From Escherichia coli (GTDB taxonomy: Bacteria; Pseudomonadota; Gammaproteobacteria; Enterobacterales; Enterobacteriaceae): a stretch of 64,000 nucleotides of DNA. The stretch lies in the NCBI RefSeq assembly GCF_045037415.1, contig NZ_CP173438.1; one strand, written 5' to 3'. The notes beneath the pieces are model-generated. The model had not been told where the DNA came from, searched no databases, and saw only the letters and a program-made list of their open reading frames with translations. Both the position numbers and the translations under genes were made by a program. Shown in pieces: positions 1-46,570 of this stretch (position 1 is the stretch's first letter; each line of letters begins with the position of its first letter).

Positions 1-494
1 AAGGAGTAACAGATTGTGGTACCGACAAACTTAAAACCACGTTTTTTTAGTGCCTTAGATAGGGCGTCGGAGGCGGGTGTAGATGTGGGGATTTCGCTCA
101 ACGTTGTGGCTTGTGTCACCTGTGGTTGATGATTGACAAACGACCAGACAAAGTCGGCAAACGGTTCGCCGTTCTGTTCCATTTGCAGGTACGCCCGCGC
201 ATTACCAATAATTGCCTGAATTTTCCCACGATGGCGGATAATCCCGGCGTCCTGTACCAGTCTTTCGACATCCTCTTCCTGCATTGCGGCAACTTTCACC
301 GGATCGAACTGATGAAAGCATGCGCGATAGTTTTCGCGTTTTTTGAGGACGGTGATCCACGATAACCCAGCCTGCTGCCCTTCCAGGCAGATCATTTCGA
401 ACAGTTTTTTACTGTCAGTTTCAGGCACGCCCCATTCATTATCATGGTAGGCAATATAAAGCGGGTCCTGACTCACCCAGCCGCAACGTTCCAT
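1..494 (-). CDS. tag: DNA-3-methyladenine glycosylase I (partial; 3' end runs off window start)
   Basis: Minus-strand translation from ATG near 494 reads MERCGWVSQDPLYIAYHDNEWGVPETDSKKLFEMICLEGQQAGLSWITVLKKRENY..., matching Tag. Absent from the ORF track because the frame runs off the window edge. Confidence 0.8.
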   Translation of the reverse strand, partial: MERCGWVSQDPLYIAYHDNEWGVPETDSKKLFEMICLEGQQAGLSWITVLKKRENYRACFHQFDPVKVAAMQEEDVERLVQDAGIIRHRGKIQAIIGNARAYLQMEQNGEPFADFVWSFVNHQPQVTQATTLSEIPTSTPASDALSKALKKRGFKFVGTTICYS

Positions 495-651
495 ACTTTC
501 CCTCGCTATGTACCCGATCGTAAAAATTTCAGCCGCTTTTCTTGACGCATCGGTGAAAAAGTCAATATTTAATACAGGGCTACTATGCCCGATATCCTTC
601 ATACAATGACAATAATATTGCCGAATTCGGCTCTTCCCTGGAGTCGTGTTA

Positions 652-1350
652 ATGATCATAAAAAAAAGCGGTGGTCGCTGGCAGCTAAGCCTGCTTGCGA
701 GCGTGGTAATCAGTGCCTTTTTTCTCAACACAGCTTACGCCTGGCAACAAGAATATATCGTTGATACGCAACCCGGACATTCCACAGAGCGTTACACCTG
801 GGATAGCGATCATCAACCTGATTACAACGATATTTTGTCGCAACGTATTCAAAGTAGCCAAAGGGCGCTGGGACTGGAAGTCAATCTGGCGGAAGAAACC
901 CCTGTGGATGTGACCAGCAGTATGAGTATGGGCTGGAATTTTCCTTTATATGAGCAGGTTACAACCGGCCCGGTCGCGGCATTACATTACGATGGCACAA
1001 CCACCTCGATGTATAACGAGTTTGGCGACAGTACTACCACGCTGGCCGATCCGTTATGGCATGCCAGCGTGAGTACCTTAGGCTGGCGTGTTGACTCCCG
1101 GCTTGGCGATCTCCGACCCTGGGCGCAAATCAGCTATAACCAGCAATTTGGCGAGAATATCTGGAAGGCGCAATCAGGCCTGAGCCGGATGACGGCGACA
1201 AACCAGAACGGCAACTGGCTGGATGTCACCGTAGGCGCTGATATGTTGCTCAATCAAAATATTGCTGCCTATGCTGCGCTATCTCAGGCAGAAAATACCA
1301 CTAACAATAGCGACTATCTGTATACGATGGGGGTTAGTGCCAGATTTTAA
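652..1350 (+). CDS. yhjY: YhjY, autotransporter beta-domain-like outer membrane protein
   Basis: ORF 646..1350 (GTG start in track); ATG at codon 3 gives 232 aa with a signal-peptide-like N-terminus, matching YhjY. Divergent from tag. Confidence 0.8.
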   Translation: MIIKKSGGRWQLSLLASVVISAFFLNTAYAWQQEYIVDTQPGHSTERYTWDSDHQPDYNDILSQRIQSSQRALGLEVNLAEETPVDVTSSMSMGWNFPLYEQVTTGPVAALHYDGTTTSMYNEFGDSTTTLADPLWHASVSTLGWRVDSRLGDLRPWAQISYNQQFGENIWKAQSGLSRMTATNQNGNWLDVTVGADMLLNQNIAAYAALSQAENTTNNSDYLYTMGVSARF

Positions 1351-1464
1351 CGTTATAGATACAATTGAAACCCATAAATAACAACTAATGTGGCGATAGT
1401 GGGGACTAACTTACTAAATAATAAATTTGGCGAATAATTGTCGAGTCATTCATTCCTGAACTAA

Positions 1465-1496
1465 TGCATTTCATTCCGTTCTGATGGCATTTCATG
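1465..1496 (+). promoter_or_regulatory. Direct repeat (GCATTTCAT, about 12-nt spacer, GCATTTCAT) upstream of yhjX; candidate YpdB response-regulator site
   Basis: Two copies of GCATTTCAT about 21 bp apart (start to start), roughly 85-115 bp upstream of the yhjX ATG. As I recall it, the published YpdB motif in the yhjX promoter is GGCATTTCAT-N11-GGCATTTCAT. Confidence 0.4.
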
Positions 1497-1578
1497 CCGT
1501 TTTTCCCCAGGCATAAAGCGCACTTCGTTATGGTTGTCAGCAGAGATTTTTCCTTTTTATTACTGCAGGAATACTGCC

Positions 1579-2787
1579 ATGACACCTTCAAATTATCAGC
1601 GTACTCGCTGGCTGACACTCATCGGTACTATCATTACCCAGTTTGCTCTGGGGTCGGTTTATACCTGGAGTCTGTTTAACGGTGCGCTTTCTGCCAAGCT
1701 GGGGGCTCCTGTAAGCCAGGTTGCTTTCTCTTTCGGCTTGTTAAGTCTGGGGCTGGCAATTTCGTCTTCTGTTGCGGGCAAATTGCAGGAACGTTTTGGT
1801 GTTAAACGCGTCACTATGGCTTCCGGCATTTTGCTGGGATTAGGTTTCTTCCTGACAGCACATTCCAACAACCTGATGATGCTGTGGTTAAGCGCCGGTG
1901 TGTTGGTTGGTCTGGCGGATGGTGCGGGTTACCTGTTGACGCTCTCTAACTGCGTGAAGTGGTTTCCGGAGCGTAAGGGACTTATCTCTGCTTTTGCTAT
2001 CGGTTCTTATGGTCTGGGCAGCCTGGGTTTTAAATTTATCGACACGCACCTGCTCGAAACGGTGGGTCTGGAAAAAACCTTTGTTATTTGGGGCGCGATT
2101 GTACTGGTGATGATTGTCTTTGGCGCAACGTTAATGAAAGATGCGCCGAAGCAGGAAGTGAAAACCAGCAATGGTGTGGTGGAGAAGGACTACACCCTGG
2201 CAGAGTCGATGCGTAAACCGCAGTACTGGATGTTAGCGGTTATGTTCCTGACTGCGTGCATGAGTGGTCTGTATGTGATTGGTGTAGCGAAAGATATCGC
2301 TCAAAGTCTGGCGCATCTTGATGCAATTTCCGCAGCCAATGCTGTGACGGTTATTTCCATCGCCAACCTTTCTGGTCGTCTGGTGCTGGGCATTCTGTCT
2401 GACAAAATCGCCCGTATCCGTGTTATCACCATTGGTCAGGTGATTGCGCTGGTGGGTATGGCGGCCCTGCTGTTTGCACCATTGAATGCAGTGACGTTCT
2501 TTGCAGCGATTGCCTGTGTGGCATTTAACTTTGGTGGCACGATTACGGTGTTCCCGTCACTGGTCAGTGAGTTCTTCGGCCTCAATAACCTGGCGAAAAA
2601 CTACGGCGTCATTTACCTCGGTTTCGGTATCGGCAGCATTTGTGGTTCGATTATCGCTTCACTGTTTGGCGGATTCTATGTGACTTTCTACGTGATTTTC
2701 GCCCTGCTGATTCTGTCACTGGCGCTTTCTACGACCATTCGCCAGCCAGAGCAGAAAATGTTGCGTGAGGCGCATGGCTCCCTTTAA
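1579..2787 (+). CDS. yhjX: MFS transporter YhjX (pyruvate-inducible)
   Basis: ORF 1534..2787 trimmed to ATG at 1579 (MTPSNYQRTRWLTL...), 402 aa, multi-TM MFS-like. Confidence 0.9.
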   Translation: MTPSNYQRTRWLTLIGTIITQFALGSVYTWSLFNGALSAKLGAPVSQVAFSFGLLSLGLAISSSVAGKLQERFGVKRVTMASGILLGLGFFLTAHSNNLMMLWLSAGVLVGLADGAGYLLTLSNCVKWFPERKGLISAFAIGSYGLGSLGFKFIDTHLLETVGLEKTFVIWGAIVLVMIVFGATLMKDAPKQEVKTSNGVVEKDYTLAESMRKPQYWMLAVMFLTACMSGLYVIGVAKDIAQSLAHLDAISAANAVTVISIANLSGRLVLGILSDKIARIRVITIGQVIALVGMAALLFAPLNAVTFFAAIACVAFNFGGTITVFPSLVSEFFGLNNLAKNYGVIYLGFGIGSICGSIIASLFGGFYVTFYVIFALLILSLALSTTIRQPEQKMLREAHGSL

Positions 2788-2871
2788 TGCTCAGCCGTGA
2801 GCTACTGGGCTTCAGCTTCAGTGTGCATCAAACGCATCAACGAAATGTATAAACAATAACGCGTAAAATTT

Positions 2872-2895
2872 GGGCCAGTTAACTGGCCCTTTTTA
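2872..2895 (+). terminator. Rho-independent terminator downstream of yhjX
   Basis: GGGCCAGTT/AACTGGCCC inverted repeat followed by a T-run. Confidence 0.5.
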
Positions 2896-3110
2896 CTGCT
2901 TTTTGTAACGCTAAAGTCTCTTTTCAAACTTGCATTTTTGTAAATTTGTGCTTCGTGCACACTCTTTCCCCACACTTTTTCCCTTTGCTGTGGTCTACTT
3001 ATTCGCGCGTGTAGATTTTACTTATCTGACTACCTCCGCACTTTTCCCCTGCCTGGCCTGAAAAGCCACTAAGCAGGGTGTTATCACCTGTTTGTCCAGG
3101 GTTTGTTTGC

Positions 3111-4802
3111 ATGAGATACATCAAATCGATTACACAGCAGAAGCTGAGCTTTTTGCTTGCAATCTATATTGGCCTTTTTATGAATGGCGCGGTTTTTTAC
3201 CGCCGCTTTGGCAGCTATGCGCACGATTTTACCGTCTGGAAAGGCATTTCTGCTGTTGTTGAACTGGCCGCCACCGTACTGGTGACCTTCTTTTTACTGC
3301 GTCTGCTTTCGCTGTTTGGCCGCCGCAGCTGGCGTATTCTGGCATCGCTGGTGGTGCTCTTTTCTGCAGGTGCCAGCTATTACATGACCTTCCTTAATGT
3401 AGTCATTGGTTATGGCATCATCGCATCCGTCATGACCACCGATATCGACCTGTCAAAAGAAGTTGTTGGTCTGAACTTTATTCTCTGGTTAATCGCCGTA
3501 AGCGCGTTGCCTCTTATCCTTATCTGGAATAACCGCTGTCGTTACACCTTGCTCCGACAACTGCGAACCCCAGGGCAACGTATTCGCAGCCTGGCGGTCG
3601 TCGTACTGGCAGGTATTATGGTTTGGGCACCGATTCGTTTGCTGGATATCCAGCAGAAGAAAGTGGAGAGGGCGACAGGTGTTGATTTGCCGAGTTATGG
3701 CGGCGTCGTCGCGAACTCTTATCTGCCATCAAACTGGCTTTCGGCATTAGGTCTTTATGCCTGGGCGCGGGTCGATGAATCTTCCGATAACAATTCTCTC
3801 CTTAACCCTGCGAAGAAGTTTACGTACCAGGCTCCACAAAACGTTGATGATACATATGTCGTTTTCATTATTGGTGAAACCACGCGCTGGGATCATATGG
3901 GCATTTTCGGCTATGAACGCAATACCACACCGAAACTGGCTCAGGAGAAAAATCTGGCGGCGTTCCGTGGTTACTCCTGTGATACTGCAACCAAACTCTC
4001 ACTGCGTTGCATGTTTGTACGTCAGGGTGGAGCAGAAGATAATCCGCAGCGCACATTAAAAGAACAGAACATTTTCGCGGTATTGAAGCAGTTAGGATTC
4101 AGTTCTGATCTCTACGCTATGCAAAGCGAAATGTGGTTCTACAGCAATACGATGGCGGACAACATTGCTTATCGTGAGCAGATTGGTGCGGAGCCACGTA
4201 ACCGTGGCAAACCGGTAGATGATATGTTGCTGGTAGACGAAATGCAGCAATCGCTGGGGCGCAACCCGGATGGTAAGCATCTGATCATTCTGCATACCAA
4301 AGGCTCACACTTTAACTACACCCAGCGTTACCCGCGCAGCTTTGCGCAGTGGAAGCCGGAATGTATTGGTGTTGATAGCGGCTGTACCAAAGCGCAGATG
4401 ATCAACTCATACGACAACTCGGTGACCTATGTGGATCACTTTATTTCCAGCGTGATTGATCAGGTTCGCGATAAGAAAGCGATTGTGTTCTATGCAGCTG
4501 ACCACGGTGAGTCAATTAATGAACGCGAGCACCTGCACGGCACGCCGCGTGAACTGGCACCGCCGGAACAGTTCCGTGTGCCGATGATGGTCTGGATGTC
4601 GGATAAATATCTGGAAAATCCGGTCAATGCGCAGGCATTTGCGCAGCTGAAAAAAGAAGCCGACATGAAAGTGCCACGCCGTCATGTAGAGCTGTACGAC
4701 ACCATCATGGGTTGTCTTGGCTATACTTCACCGGATGGTGGAATTAACGAAAACAACAACTGGTGCCACATCCCGCAGGCAAGAGAGGCGGCGGCTAACT
4801 AA
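3111..4802 (+). CDS. eptB: Kdo2-lipid A phosphoethanolamine transferase EptB
   Basis: ORF 3078..4802 trimmed to ATG at 3111 ([17 protein letters not shown]...), 563 aa; N-terminal TM region plus sulfatase-like domain. Confidence 0.9.
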
Positions 4803-39894: not shown

Positions 39895-39990
39895 TGCGCA
39901 TTATAGCCGGATGCGATGCTGGCGCATCTTATCCGGCCTACGGGGAGCCAGGCCGGATAAATTCGTACGCCGCATCCGGCCTATTTTAAG
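39895..39990. repeat. REP elements in the yhjE-yhjD intergenic region
   Basis: GCCGGATGCGATGCTGGCGCATCTTATCCGGCCTAC and GCCGGATAAATTCGTACGCCGCATCCGGCC palindromic units. Confidence 0.5.
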
Positions 39991-40999
39991 GCTGTGTTTT
40001 CCCCGGCATTCGCGGGTCGTCTTTATATTCGGCGGTGGCAATCCACGCCGCGCAAAACAGCGTCAAACGGGCGAAGAAGTAGAAAAATGCCATCAGCCCC
40101 AGCACGGAACCAAATGCTGCGCCAGAGGGTGATTTCATCAACGATGGCAGGGTGTAGGTCATCACGATTTTAATCACTTCAAAACCAATAGCAGCCAGAA
40201 ATGTTCCGCGGATCAGGGCTTTTTTGCGCGGACGGTGGCGCGGCAACCGCCAGAAGATCCAGAAGAAAAGCAGATAGTTGGCGAAGATGGAAATCGCCAC
40301 GCCAATCAACCGCCATGTCGGTTTCAGCCACTCAATGCTGTTCAGGTGCAGGGCGCTAATAATCATTTGCTGCGCAGAACCGGCAACCGAGGTGATAGAA
40401 AGCGTCACAATCAGCGCAATCAACAAACCAATCAGCGAAATAAAATCACGCAGATATTTTACCCAGAACTTCTCCTGATCTTGCGGCGAGCGTTCCCAGA
40501 CATCGCGTGACTGGGCGCGAATCGCTTCACGCAGGTTACCCATCCAGTTGATGCCGGAATAAAGTGCCACTGCCAGACCGACAAGCCCTACAGTCGTACG
40601 CTGCTGAACGGCGGTGTTGATGGTGTTTTTCAATGTGGCGGCTAGCGTCGGATCGCTGATGTTTTGCAGAATTTTGTCGAAGATATCCTGTAGCAACATC
40701 GGATGGGAGGCGAGCACAAAGCCCCCTGCGGCAAACGACACCATCAAAATGGGGATCATCGACAAAAATGAGAAATAGGTGATAGCCGCACCAAACTGGT
40801 TACCCAGCCGATCGTTAAAGCGTTCTGTCGCGCGAATCAGGTGCGCAATAACCGGTTGGCGTTGGACTTTCTCGGCAGTGGTGGTGACGGTTTCCAGCGC
40901 CTGGCTAACTTTGCCGCCTTTCTCGCTATTATCCAACTGCTTAATCGGCTCGTGCTCCAGATCCTGGGTGGGACGTTTGATCTCGTTTTCCTGCGTCAT
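39986..40999 (-). CDS. yhjD: Inner membrane protein YhjD (YihY/virulence-factor BrkB family)
   Basis: ORF 39986..41083 trimmed to ATG at 40999 (MTQENEIKRPTQDLEHEPIKQLDNSEKGG...), 337 aa, multi-TM. Confidence 0.85.
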   Translation of the reverse strand: MTQENEIKRPTQDLEHEPIKQLDNSEKGGKVSQALETVTTTAEKVQRQPVIAHLIRATERFNDRLGNQFGAAITYFSFLSMIPILMVSFAAGGFVLASHPMLLQDIFDKILQNISDPTLAATLKNTINTAVQQRTTVGLVGLAVALYSGINWMGNLREAIRAQSRDVWERSPQDQEKFWVKYLRDFISLIGLLIALIVTLSITSVAGSAQQMIISALHLNSIEWLKPTWRLIGVAISIFANYLLFFWIFWRLPRHRPRKKALIRGTFLAAIGFEVIKIVMTYTLPSLMKSPSGAAFGSVLGLMAFFYFFARLTLFCAAWIATAEYKDDPRMPGKTQP

Positions 41000-41046
41000 C
41001 CGCTCTTTTGTCCTTCTGTCGTGGTCATTCTTAAAAGTATAGTCGG

Positions 41047-41946
41047 TCAGTCCAGGTACTCTTTCATTACGCCAGCCAGCCACTGCATAAACAGGTTTAC
41101 ACGCCGGGAAAGCTCCCGACGCTGCGGATAAACCAGTGAAAGGGACAGCGGCTCGGCACGGTAGCCAGGCAACACTTCAATAAGCCGCCCGGCACGCAGG
41201 GCTTCGCGCACGGCAATGCGCGGGATCTGAATAATCCCCAGACCGGCAAGACCGGCGGCGAGATAGTTTTCGCTACTGTTTACCGTCAACATGCTGCCAG
41301 ACTTAAACCACTGGACGCCATTAACGCTGGCAACCTCAAAACCTAACGGATGTACACCCAGGTGCGGTGTATAACGCACTATTGCGTGTGAAGTCAGATC
41401 ATCGGGGCTTTGCGGATAACCAAAGCGCGTCAGATAGTGCGGACTGGCACAGTTGACCATGGTCAGTTTACCGAGGGGACGGGCGATAACGCCATCTTCC
41501 GGTAATGCGCCAGTGCGTATCACGCAATCAAAACCATCATGAAGAATATCTACCGGACGGTCATGGCTACTCAGTTCCAGCTCAATTCCCGGATGCAGAT
41601 AGAGAAATTCCGACAAGCGCGGCAGTAACAGGCTTTTCGCGATTCCTGACGGGATGTCGATGCGTAATTTACCGCTGATACTGGTGGCATCCTGTTGAAA
41701 CAGACCGTCCAGTTCGCTGAGATTACTCAACACATCTTTTGCTCGTTGATAATAGGTCATGCCTTCTGGCGTGAGTTTGACCCGTCGCGTGGTGCGCTGG
41801 AGAAGCTGGGTGCCAAGTTGATGTTCCAGTGCCTGTATCTGGCGCGAAACACTTCCCTTTGGCAAAGCAAAGAAATCCGCCGCGCGGGAAAAACTTTCCA
41901 GCTCCGCGACTTTGATGAACAACTGCATTGCGTGAATTTTATCCAT
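41047..41946 (-). CDS. yhjC: LysR-family transcriptional regulator YhjC
   Basis: ORF 41047..42018 trimmed to ATG at 41946 (MDKIHAMQLFIKVAELESFSRAADFFALPKGSVSRQIQALE...), 299 aa, N-terminal HTH. Confidence 0.85.
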   Translation of the reverse strand: MDKIHAMQLFIKVAELESFSRAADFFALPKGSVSRQIQALEHQLGTQLLQRTTRRVKLTPEGMTYYQRAKDVLSNLSELDGLFQQDATSISGKLRIDIPSGIAKSLLLPRLSEFLYLHPGIELELSSHDRPVDILHDGFDCVIRTGALPEDGVIARPLGKLTMVNCASPHYLTRFGYPQSPDDLTSHAIVRYTPHLGVHPLGFEVASVNGVQWFKSGSMLTVNSSENYLAAGLAGLGIIQIPRIAVREALRAGRLIEVLPGYRAEPLSLSLVYPQRRELSRRVNLFMQWLAGVMKEYLD

Positions 41947-42465
41947 TTCTTTGACCGATTGTTGTTCACAACGAAACAGTAGCGTGCATATCGCATTGTT
42001 TATTGTTTTTTCTAACATCTAATGCCGGGTTTCACAATGTTGTCATGATGAATGTGGCGATTTCTCAGCAGGAAAAGGGAGGAATAGCTTTATGAGAAAG
42101 GTAAATTCCCTTAAACAGAGCGTATTTTTCAGCGATTCCCTTTAAAGTGAATAGAAGATGTATTGGCTATTTGTGCTTATTTTTATCTCATTGCCGTTTG
42201 TTATTTTTGTTTATGGTCGCGGAATTTCATTTTTAATTGCATGCGTACTAACTACCGATATAAGGAAATCCTCAAAAATGTTTTAAATAGTGCCCTCGAC
42301 ATGTAATTTCAGGCGTTTAGCTGTAACTATTTATATCGGTAACTATTTTCTACGTGTCATCTCTGTAGAATGGCCACCGCCAAATGGCGAATTCTTATTT
42401 TTTCTCGCGGGTAATACCCTTCCACTACTTAAGTCTTTTTAACGTATTCAGGTGGAGATTCAGTT

Positions 42466-43068
42466 ATGCAAATAGTCATGTTTGACAGGCAGTCAATATT
42501 TATTCATGGAATGAAAATCAGTTTACAGCATCGTATTCCAGGAGTGAGTATTCAGGGGGCCAGTCAGGCAGACGAGTTATGGCAAAAGCTGGAAAGTTAC
42601 CCTGAAGCCTTAGTGATGCTCGATGGCGATCAGGATGGTGAGTTTTGCTACTGGTTGCTGCAAAAAACTGTGGTGCAATTTCCTGAGGTTAAGGTGTTAA
42701 TTACGGCGACGGATTGCAACAAACGGTGGTTACAGGAAGTTATTCATTTTAATGTGCTGGCCATTGTGCCTCGTGATTCAACCGTCGAGACATTTGCGTT
42801 GGCGGTAAATAGTGCGGCGATGGGGATGATGTTTCTGCCTGGAGACTGGCGAACGACGCCGGAAAAGGACATTAAAGATCTCAAATCGTTAAGCGCCCGC
42901 CAGCGGGAGATTTTAACCATGTTAGCGGCGGGCGAATCAAATAAAGAGATCGGCAGGGCGCTGAATATCAGTACCGGAACGGTAAAAGCGCATCTGGAAT
43001 CACTGTATCGCCGTCTGGAAGTCAAAAATCGCACCCAGGCGGCAATGATGTTAAATATCTCCTCCTGA
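42466..43068 (+). CDS. yhjB: LuxR/FixJ-family response-regulator-like transcription factor YhjB
   Basis: 200 aa with C-terminal LuxR-type HTH (LSARQREILTMLAAGESNKEIGRALNISTGTVKAHL). Confidence 0.85.
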   Translation: MQIVMFDRQSIFIHGMKISLQHRIPGVSIQGASQADELWQKLESYPEALVMLDGDQDGEFCYWLLQKTVVQFPEVKVLITATDCNKRWLQEVIHFNVLAIVPRDSTVETFALAVNSAAMGMMFLPGDWRTTPEKDIKDLKSLSARQREILTMLAAGESNKEIGRALNISTGTVKAHLESLYRRLEVKNRTQAAMMLNISS

Positions 43069-43118
43069 AGAGGATAATTTTACAGCCAGCAGGAAGTTAG
43101 CGGCTGGCTGTAAAAATA

Positions 43119-44798
<1,680 letters not shown>

Positions 44799-45051
44799 TT
44801 ATCGGGCTTTTCTTTAAGGGTAGTCATTCGCTCCGCCTGGTGGGCGACAAAGCGTGCGGTGGATCACGTTTATTAACCTGCCAAAAAATATAACGCACTA
44901 ATATCAATGGAATTTATAAAAATACGGATTTCGTGTTGTTTTTCATTTTCAGAACATTCAATCCTGCTCTCGCCGCAATCATGATATGCCATTCCTGATC
45001 TGGGTAATAGGCACTGGCTATCTTATTGATAGTTTATATTCATGTAATTGA

Positions 45052-45065
45052 TTGATTCCTATCAA
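45052..45065 (+). promoter_or_regulatory. Candidate FNR binding site (TTGAT-TCCT-ATCAA) upstream of ccp
   Basis: Perfect match to the FNR consensus TTGAT-N4-ATCAA about 110 bp upstream of the ccp start; ccp (yhjA) is known to be FNR- and OxyR-dependent. Confidence 0.5.
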
Positions 45066-45172
45066 AAAGCATATCTCCCTGTTTTTTATGATGGCTTTGT
45101 CTCGCAGAGACGTTTGCAGCATTCTGGAAAATTTTCTGGGTCACAATAACTCACTACCGTGAGGGAAGAATA

Positions 45173-46570
45173 ATGAAAATGGTCTCACGTATTACCGCGA
45201 TCGGCCTGGCTGGCGTCGCGATTTGCTATTTAGGGTTATCTGGTTATGTGTGGTACCACGATAATAAACGCAGTAAACAGGCCGATGTTCAGGCATCTGC
45301 TGTCAGTGAAAATAATAAGGTTTTAGGCTTTCTCCGCGAAAAAGGATGCGATTATTGCCATACGCCTTCGGCAGAATTACCCGCCTATTATTATATTCCC
45401 GGCGCGAAACAGTTGATGGATTACGACATAAAGCTTGGATATAAATCTTTTAACCTCGAGGCCGTGCGTGCGGCTCTGCTGGCTAATAAACCCGTTTCGC
45501 AAAGCGATCTGAATAAGATTGAATGGGTGATGCAGTATGAAACTATGCCGCCAACGCGTTATACCGCGCTACACTGGGCGGGTAAGGTGAGTGATGAAGA
45601 GCGGGCGGAAATACTGGCCTGGATTGCAAAACAGCGCGCGGAATATTACGCCAGCAATGATACTGCTCCGGAGCATCGCAATGAACCGGTGCAGCCCATC
45701 CCGCAAAAACTGCCTACCGATGCGCAAAAAGTGGCGTTGGGTTTTGCGCTGTATCACGATCCCCGTTTATCGGCGGATAGCACCATTTCATGCGCTCATT
45801 GCCATGCGTTGAATGCGGGGGGCGTCGATGGCAGAAAAACATCGATTGGTGTTGGTGGCGCAGTTGGGCCGATTAACGCGCCGACGGTATTTAACTCAGT
45901 ATTTAACGTTGAGCAGTTCTGGGATGGTCGTGCGGCAACATTGCAGGATCAGGCTGGTGGACCGCCGTTGAACCCGATTGAAATGGCGTCGAAATCCTGG
46001 GACGAAATTATTGCTAAGCTGGAAAAAGATCCGCAGCTTAAAGCGCAGTTCCTCGAAGTCTATCCGCAAGGTTTCAGTGGCGAAAATATTACTGATGCCA
46101 TTGCTGAATTTGAGAAAACATTAATTACGCCGGATTCCCCATTTGATAAATGGTTGCGTGGAGATGAGAATGCTCTGACGGCGCAACAGAAAAAAGGCTA
46201 TCAATTATTTAAAGATAATAAATGTGCAACTTGTCATGGTGGTATTATTCTCGGCGGACGTTCCTTTGAACCGTTGGGGCTGAAAAAAGACTTTAACTTT
46301 GGTGAAATTACGGCGGCGGATATTGGTCGTATGAATGTTACTAAAGAAGAGCGTGATAAATTGCGTCAGAAAGTACCCGGTTTACGTAACGTTGCTTTAA
46401 CGGCACCGTACTTCCATCGCGGTGACGTGCCGACGCTGGACGGGGCAGTGAAACTGATGCTGCGCTATCAGGTAGGCAAAGAGCTGCCGCAGGAGGATGT
46501 GGATGATATCGTAGCTTTCCTGCACAGTCTGAACGGGGTTTACATGCCGTATATGCAGGATAAACAATAA
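45173..46570 (+). CDS. ccp: Di-heme cytochrome c peroxidase
   Basis: 465 aa with N-terminal TM and CxxCH heme-binding motifs (CDYCH, CAHCH, CATCH); recognised as YhjA/Ccp. Confidence 0.9.
   Translation: MKMVSRITAIGLAGVAICYLGLSGYVWYHDNKRSKQADVQASAVSENNKVLGFLREKGCDYCHTPSAELPAYYYIPGAKQLMDYDIKLGYKSFNLEAVRAALLANKPVSQSDLNKIEWVMQYETMPPTRYTALHWAGKVSDEERAEILAWIAKQRAEYYASNDTAPEHRNEPVQPIPQKLPTDAQKVALGFALYHDPRLSADSTISCAHCHALNAGGVDGRKTSIGVGGAVGPINAPTVFNSVFNVEQFWDGRAATLQDQAGGPPLNPIEMASKSWDEIIAKLEKDPQLKAQFLEVYPQGFSGENITDAIAEFEKTLITPDSPFDKWLRGDENALTAQQKKGYQLFKDNKCATCHGGIILGGRSFEPLGLKKDFNFGEITAADIGRMNVTKEERDKLRQKVPGLRNVALTAPYFHRGDVPTLDGAVKLMLRYQVGKELPQEDVDDIVAFLHSLNGVYMPYMQDKQ

Follow-up and report, generated by a model that had tools for sequence, protein, structure and literature searches.

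The 17-codon open reading frame (mini-ORF) that lies between the divergent regulators yhjC and yhjB is very probably a chance ORF in a fast-evolving, AT-rich and H-NS-bound spacer between two divergent promoter regions. Most likely, it is neither a leader peptide nor a conserved small-protein gene. An earlier, sequence-only reading of the window (by which we mean the whole analyzed stretch of 64,000 nucleotides) had offered the frame as a possible leader peptide or small protein and had remarked that it could equally be chance. It is this last remark that our analysis bears out: the frame is not conserved, it falls into the least-conserved bins of the intergenic region, and sites of this kind are no commoner in the window than in shuffled sequence.

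The gene order in the window is yhjE-yhjD-yhjC-yhjB-treF-ccp, as in K-12. Earlier description and analysis agree on the locus in all points, namely the identities and strands of yhjC (LysR-type) and yhjB (LuxR-type), their divergent orientation, and the length (519 bp) and AT-rich composition (36.6% GC) of the spacer between them. Window coordinates (w) were converted to MG1655 coordinates (m) from the gene starts as m = 3714360 - w, the + strand of the window corresponding to the - strand of MG1655. The features of the locus are the following:

41047..41946, - strand: yhjC (= rcdB), LysR-family regulator, 299 aa, annotated start at 41946.
41947..42030, - strand: conserved block adjoining yhjC (rcdB), with 73-87% invariant columns in seven Escherichia lineages.
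42030..42047, + strand: Pho-box-like site TTTCACAATGTTGTCATG, 30 nt upstream of the Shine-Dalgarno (SD) motif and pointing at the mini-ORF and yhjB.
42048..42254, no strand: fast-evolving central spacer with the mini-ORF and other strain-specific ORFs, 3-43% invariant columns per bin.
42077..42082, + strand: Shine-Dalgarno-like sequence GGGAGG, in which the A at 42081 is lineage-restricted and apparently derived.
42092..42145, + strand: mini-ORF, 17 sense codons MRKVNSLKQSVFFSDSL and then TAA, intact only in haplotypes of the window, CFT073 and SC455 type.
42105..42145, no strand: direct repeat in the mini-ORF, ATTCCCTTAAA at 42105-42115 and ATTCCCTTTAA at 42135-42145.
42255..42465, + strand: conserved block adjoining yhjB, ~210 bp, non-coding, kept across genera.
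42466..43068, + strand: yhjB, LuxR/GerE-type HTH regulator (PF00196), 200 aa.

Strain SK1144 is 100% identical to the window across 39920-45470. IS1397 adjoins yhjD in SK1144 and is absent from the window. A longer YhjC frame of 323 aa, beginning at an ATG at 42018 and adding 24 open codons 5' of the annotated start, would shorten the intergenic region. It was rejected in favor of the 299-aa start, since a 1-nt deletion in E69 and Salmonella breaks the extension. The block at 41947-42030 presumably holds the yhjC promoter and 5' UTR; on the aligned sequences, it is not an N-terminal extension of YhjC. On the other side of the spacer, a 211-aa YhjB variant is found on 221 E. coli contigs with 98% identity over only 83% of the query, which suggests a frameshifted or otherwise-terminated yhjB allele in some strains.

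The mini-ORF had been described correctly to the last coordinate. GGGAGG is followed by the 9-nt spacer AATAGCTTT (42083-42091), the ATG at 42092-42094 and 17 codons that run into the TAA at 42143-42145. Start codon and ribosome-binding site, as expected of a bona fide small protein, are both present in the window sequence. A regulatory codon run is absent from the peptide.

The distribution of SD and start codon within E. coli was determined with 30-mer megablast queries (42072-42101) spanning both sites, against 5,426 complete RefSeq E. coli genomes. Because a match requires an exact word of 28 nt, both key positions must match in every genome counted. The following alleles were obtained:

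GGGAGG with ATG: 987 of 5,426 genomes.
GGGCGG with CTG: 3,592 of 5,426 genomes.
GGGAGG with CTG: 26 of 5,426 genomes.
GGGCGG with ATG: 622 of 5,426 genomes.

Other variants at the SD or start account for ~200 of the 5,426 genomes. According to these counts, production of the 17-residue peptide from a good SD is possible in at most 18% of the sequenced genomes. The intergenic region of a K-12 derivative differs from that of the window at 23 positions in an alignment of 531 nt, and K-12 carries GGGCGG instead of GGGAGG (C at 42081) and CTG instead of ATG. Strains of O157:H7 are among the exact matches to this K-12-type allele, and BL21, C43, W3110 and O157:H7 fall within its identity band.

Intact copies of the ORF were found in the window, SC455, 2015C-4136CT1 and CFT073. 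The ATG is located at 274448 in CFT073 (NZ_CP158446.1) and at 214994 in SK1144 (NZ_AP018784.2). They differ at two sites, both synonymous (V4 GTA/GTG and S16 TCC/TCA), and two sites are too few for this pattern to show selection. In the types of K-12, 07-4299 and 2012C-4221, the start is CTG and the peptide carries S6P, in one case together with L7P; S6F is a further peptide change within the species. The type of 7/2, SCU-109 and 2022N21-074 combines ATG with GGGCGG and has a +1 T insertion, by which the C-terminal half becomes MRKVNFPKQSVFFQRFPLK. This frameshift was present in all three GGGCGG+ATG copies examined. Outside the carrier lineage, start, SD or frame is altered with no sign of constraint, and frame and peptide are not conserved. 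The proposal of a leader peptide or small protein does not withstand these data, with the start and SD changed in K-12 and most of the genomes and a third haplotype frameshifted.

Loci outside E. coli were collected in two ways. A YhjB scan with one genome per species covered E. albertii, E. whittamii, E1V33, SCPM-O-B-8794, E69 and MOD1-EC7003 and also returned Citrobacter amalonaticus and Salmonella enterica subsp. arizonae. Exact-protein look-ups gave seven loci, from E. fergusonii, Intestinirhabdus alba, C. rodentium, C. sedlakii, C. freundii, S. bongori and S. enterica. Neither the start codon nor an open frame was present in the five Escherichia lineages E. albertii, E. whittamii, E1V33, SCPM-O-B-8794 and E69. 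In the other Escherichia lineages the position of the ATG reads ACT, ACG, ACA, TAG or TCG, a stop is reached within 0-5 codons, and the position of the SD reads GGGCGT, TGGCTG, TGTCTG or AGGCGG. None of the other yhjB loci examined in Escherichia, Citrobacter and Salmonella has the frame either, and neither the ORF nor regulatory codons are conserved among the yhjB-bearing relatives. Conservation of the ORF and its SD across Enterobacteriaceae had been suggested as a check; with start or frame lost in close relatives, it argues against a function.

The surroundings of yhjB vary as well. E. fergusonii has neither yhjC nor a homologous spacer, and yhjD lies directly upstream of yhjB. Citrobacter species, including C. 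sedlakii and C. freundii, have an SDR gene or an EAL-domain gene at this place, and in Escherichia sp. MOD1-EC7003 the yhjC side of the intergenic region is replaced by unrelated sequence. The divergent yhjC-yhjB pair is thus not universal, and the central spacer (42048-42254) is absent or replaced wherever yhjB has another upstream neighbor.

All alignable outgroups have C at 42081. By parsimony, whose polarity rests on an imperfect alignment of this fast-evolving stretch, C would be ancestral at this position and A derived. The T of the ATG would have arisen on the E. coli stem, when an ACG-like triplet changed to ATG in the E. coli ancestor. In the majority of E. coli lineages, K-12, BL21 and O157:H7 among them, CTG would later have taken the place of ATG. 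Separately, GGGCGG would have become GGGAGG in one lineage, that of CFT073 and the window, which would explain why the textbook arrangement of SD, spacer and ATG is found only there.

Conservation along the intergenic region was scored as the fraction of invariant columns per 30-nt bin in an alignment of seven Escherichia lineages. This fraction is 0.73-0.87 beside yhjC (41940-42029), falls from 0.43 down to 0.03 over 42030-42237 and is again 0.70-0.87 from 42268 to the yhjB start. The bins of the mini-ORF reach 0.17 and 0.27. The mini-ORF thus lies in the fastest-evolving part of the region, between two promoter-proximal conserved blocks. The functional information of the intergenic region would reside in these two blocks beside yhjC and yhjB, and the DNA of the mini-ORF is probably only spacer, a substrate of H-NS and weak PhoB-binding DNA.

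The base rate of such sites was estimated for both strands of the 64-kb window, a site being defined as GGAGG followed after 5-10 nt by ATG and at least 10 open codons. Five sites were found. Three of them open long ORFs, of 334, 256 and 549 codons (the longest is treF). Each of the remaining two opens a 17-codon ORF: one is the mini-ORF, and the other lies at position 83 and is unrelated to it. When the window was shuffled with its dinucleotides preserved, 7.1 +/- 2.4 sites were obtained (5.3 with at least 17 codons). From these shuffle counts, one non-genic site per window of 64 kb is to be expected. When the 519-bp region alone was shuffled, 55 of 5,000 shuffles (1.1%) yielded a site with at least 17 codons. 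This local rate is mildly unusual yet unremarkable, given that many intergenic regions are scanned. It nevertheless counts against a chance origin, as do the canonical layout in the carriers (6-nt SD, 9-nt spacing, ATG) and the purely synonymous differences between intact copies.

A possible but rather doubtful reading is that the sequence matters as DNA: H-NS, PhoB and perhaps also RcdB or YhjB would bind here, upstream of the yhjC promoter, and the ORF would be incidental. This reading is compatible with the chance-ORF explanation. Binding sites upstream of their own divergent promoters are common among LysR-type regulators, and direct and inverted repeats are found in and around the mini-ORF. 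Taking the ATTCCCTT(T)AA repeats and the inverted AAAGGGA motifs as putative operator half-sites seems improbable, though not far-fetched. Two-copy repeats of 11 nt are often chance matches, and other Escherichia lineages do not share the repeats: the direct repeat of the mini-ORF does not extend beyond E. coli, and one copy is altered in K-12. A literature search for RcdB or YhjB binding data at the position of the mini-ORF found none. Binding by other proteins has been reported. The yhjC-yhjB region is marked as H-NS-bound, and Table 1 of Fitzgerald et al. lists a weak PhoB ChIP-seq peak (score 2) centered at MG1655 3672318, which is window position 42042 (PMC10294691). In Salmonella, a SoxS site was reported between yhjB and yhjC (PMC10268841). 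The Pho-box-like site is partly conserved in E. albertii.

The same Pho box bears on a second alternative. The mini-ORF could be a young, lineage-restricted proto-gene of the CFT073-like lineage that became translatable by the change from GGGCGG to GGGAGG, which we regard as very unlikely. A promoter just upstream, dependent on PhoB or silenced by H-NS, might drive such a gene. In its most specific form, a newborn small protein in this lineage, created by two point changes and induced by phosphate starvation or relief from H-NS, it would have only a slim chance of being correct. Several observations fit a proto-gene. The enabling mutations, including the SD-improving base, are derived relative to all outgroups, as far as the imperfect alignment of this stretch allows; SD and ATG are kept together in the 987 carrier genomes, and the full 79 nt of SD and ORF are identical in 547 of them; and the differences between intact copies are synonymous. 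However, identity inside a clonal lineage is expected from descent alone, and the sister haplotypes lost start or frame with no sign of constraint.

A condition-specific promoter for the mini-ORF may exist, because the PhoB-bound Pho box lies 30 nt upstream of the SD and, bound in vivo, faces the ORF. The phoA promoter geometry was taken as the canonical Pho-box spacing. With this spacing the transcription start site would fall ~5-8 nt upstream of the SD, and the -10 hexamer is expected at 42057-42062. The sequence at this position is GCGATT, a poor match. A scan of 41800-42600 on both strands found neither a sigma-70-like promoter nor an intrinsic terminator. The poor hexamer agrees with the 'transcriptionally inert' class of PhoB sites of Fitzgerald et al., and deletion of phoB left yhjB and yhjC RNA unchanged (252/397 vs 218/408), so that PhoB binding has no transcriptional effect on the neighbors in K-12 (PMC10294691). 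On both grounds, a PhoB-driven promoter for the mini-ORF was considered unlikely.

Translation of the mini-ORF would face a further obstacle. A 71-nt fold around the start (-12.6 kcal/mol) predicts the SD to pair with UUCCCUU at 42106-42112 in codons 5-7, with an unpaired probability of at most 0.06 at five of its six bases. The predicted partner is the first copy of the direct repeat (42105-42115). In any transcript across the mini-ORF, the SD would accordingly be sequestered in a hairpin, which also speaks against a proto-gene. No feature is annotated in the intergenic region of MG1655 (NC_000913.3), a K-12 derivative, SK1144, CFT073 and seven other RefSeq records, so that a small protein is missing here from the genome records. 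The curated MG1655 annotation does list small proteins of the class up to 50 aa. No usable study of ribosome profiling in a carrier strain (CFT073) came up in the literature search, and K-12 profiling data are uninformative for the mini-ORF because K-12 has CTG at the start. From the sequence features above, we infer that the ATG allele is not expressed in carrier strains.

The search for leader-type structures was negative. The 201-nt fold of 42060-42260 (-31.8 kcal/mol) is less stable than its shuffles (-39.9 +/- 4.3 kcal/mol, z = +1.9) and contains no attenuator-like structure 3' of the mini-ORF; an intrinsic terminator with antiterminator pairing, as a leader peptide would have it, was not found. 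In an Rfam scan of 41000-43200 (E <= 1), the sole hit was a CrcZ fragment of 14.5 bits, which carries no meaning. The mini-ORF ends 320 nt upstream of the yhjB start, ~110 bp upstream of the conserved block (which begins near 42255), and lies 220 nt upstream of a -10-like TAGAAT at 42366-42371. In an in-vitro run-off microarray, an intergenic probe 'upstream of yhjB' had a value of 1.58; it spans most of the intergenic region and is therefore not specific to the mini-ORF (PMC3141248). That the mini-ORF is a leader peptide controlling yhjB or yhjC by attenuation or translational coupling is scarcely credible: its position upstream of yhjB on the same strand, the strong SD in the window strain and the probe value would fit, but the ORF is not followed by a terminator-like hairpin or an alternative structure, a regulatory codon run is missing, the strand is wrong for yhjC, the distance to yhjB places the ORF outside the block conserved with yhjB across genera, and the ORF is absent in K-12 and most E. 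coli, where the yhjB-proximal region is identical.

The mini-ORF was compared with three kinds of known systems. Attenuation leader peptides of the trpL, pheL, ivbL and pyrL type have 14-32 codons. The mini-ORF shares with them its size, a good SD and the same-strand upstream position. Unlike these leaders, it is not conserved, lacks a regulatory codon run and has neither a terminator nor an antiterminator downstream; it also lies 320 nt from yhjB, outside the upstream block that is conserved with that gene. Weaver et al. (bioRxiv 10.1101/511675) and Stringer et al. (bioRxiv 10.1101/2021.07.02.450978) are said to have defined E. coli small proteins of up to 50 aa in K-12 by start-site ribosome profiling. 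Size class, intergenic location and an SD of its own are common to the mini-ORF and such validated small proteins. Unlike them, it has no start codon in K-12 and is missing from the curated MG1655 annotation. The mini-ORF also resembles the spurious sORFs of 'pervasive translation' and proto-genes, which are likewise very short, strain-restricted and located in H-NS-bound AT-rich DNA, and whose start and SD arise from single-base changes in an unconserved, unannotated frame. The difference from pervasively translated sORFs is that the mini-ORF is known here from sequence alone.

We regard the outcome as a clean negative, in which a textbook SD-ATG mini-ORF among regulators turns out strain-specific and free of constraint. 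We advise against carrying it forward as a candidate for either a leader peptide or a small protein. Natural 'off' alleles, with a CTG start, a weak SD or a frameshift, are segregating within E. coli. If the proto-gene reading were true, the four natural alleles, that is strong SD with ATG, weak SD with ATG and frameshift, strong SD with CTG, and weak SD with CTG, would offer a ready allelic series in which the birth of a gene could be followed inside a single species.

On the alignments, the real conserved element of the intergenic region is the yhjB-proximal block. Its conservation among E. coli, Salmonella, Citrobacter and Intestinirhabdus is striking, even though the YhjB proteins reach an identity of only 72-82%, and it accompanies yhjB whatever gene is upstream. 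Three runs are invariant in all 16 taxa, namely TTCTTATTT, GGTAATACCCTT and, after the TA(G/A)A of the -10-like hexamer, ATGGCC. An Rfam match for the block was not obtained, and RNAalifold on the yhjB 5' region gave no compensatory pairs. The block is probably an uncharacterised cis-regulatory module with promoter, operators and 5' UTR, and it is worth study in work on YhjB or RcdB. Within it we observed a palindrome TAAGGA-N2-TCCTTA near 42258-42275 and TGTAAT...TGTAAC repeats two helical turns apart. The -10-like hexamer at 42366-42371 has the form TA(G/A)AAT across the taxa.

A 14-codon frame in this block (MATAKWRILIFSRG, 42370-42414, + strand) was also considered as a leader peptide. Its length and stop are kept in 15 of 16 taxa. 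The frame was rejected as coding and its conservation assigned to the nucleotide level, because the variable columns number 8, 6 and 5 at codon positions 1, 2 and 3, codon 7 is an in-frame TGA in C. freundii, and the frame has no SD.

Two more short frames border the mini-ORF. The first is a + strand frame at 42003-42095 (…MMNVAISQQEKGGIAL) with an internal ATG at 42045, inside the Pho box, and without an SD. Its TGA overlaps the ATG of the mini-ORF as ATGA, which resembles a coupled stop-start. The second is a very hydrophobic 42-codon ORF (MYWLFVLIFISLPFVIFVYGRGISFLIACVLTTDIRKSSKMF) at 42158-42286 on the + strand, just 3' of the mini-ORF. On ~62 E. coli contigs, automated pipelines have annotated it as 'hypothetical' or as a 'putative membrane protein'. 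K-12 has ACG in place of its ATG, and other Escherichia lineages lack this ATG. This ORF is probably another strain-specific chance ORF, hydrophobic residues being the default coding of T-rich DNA.
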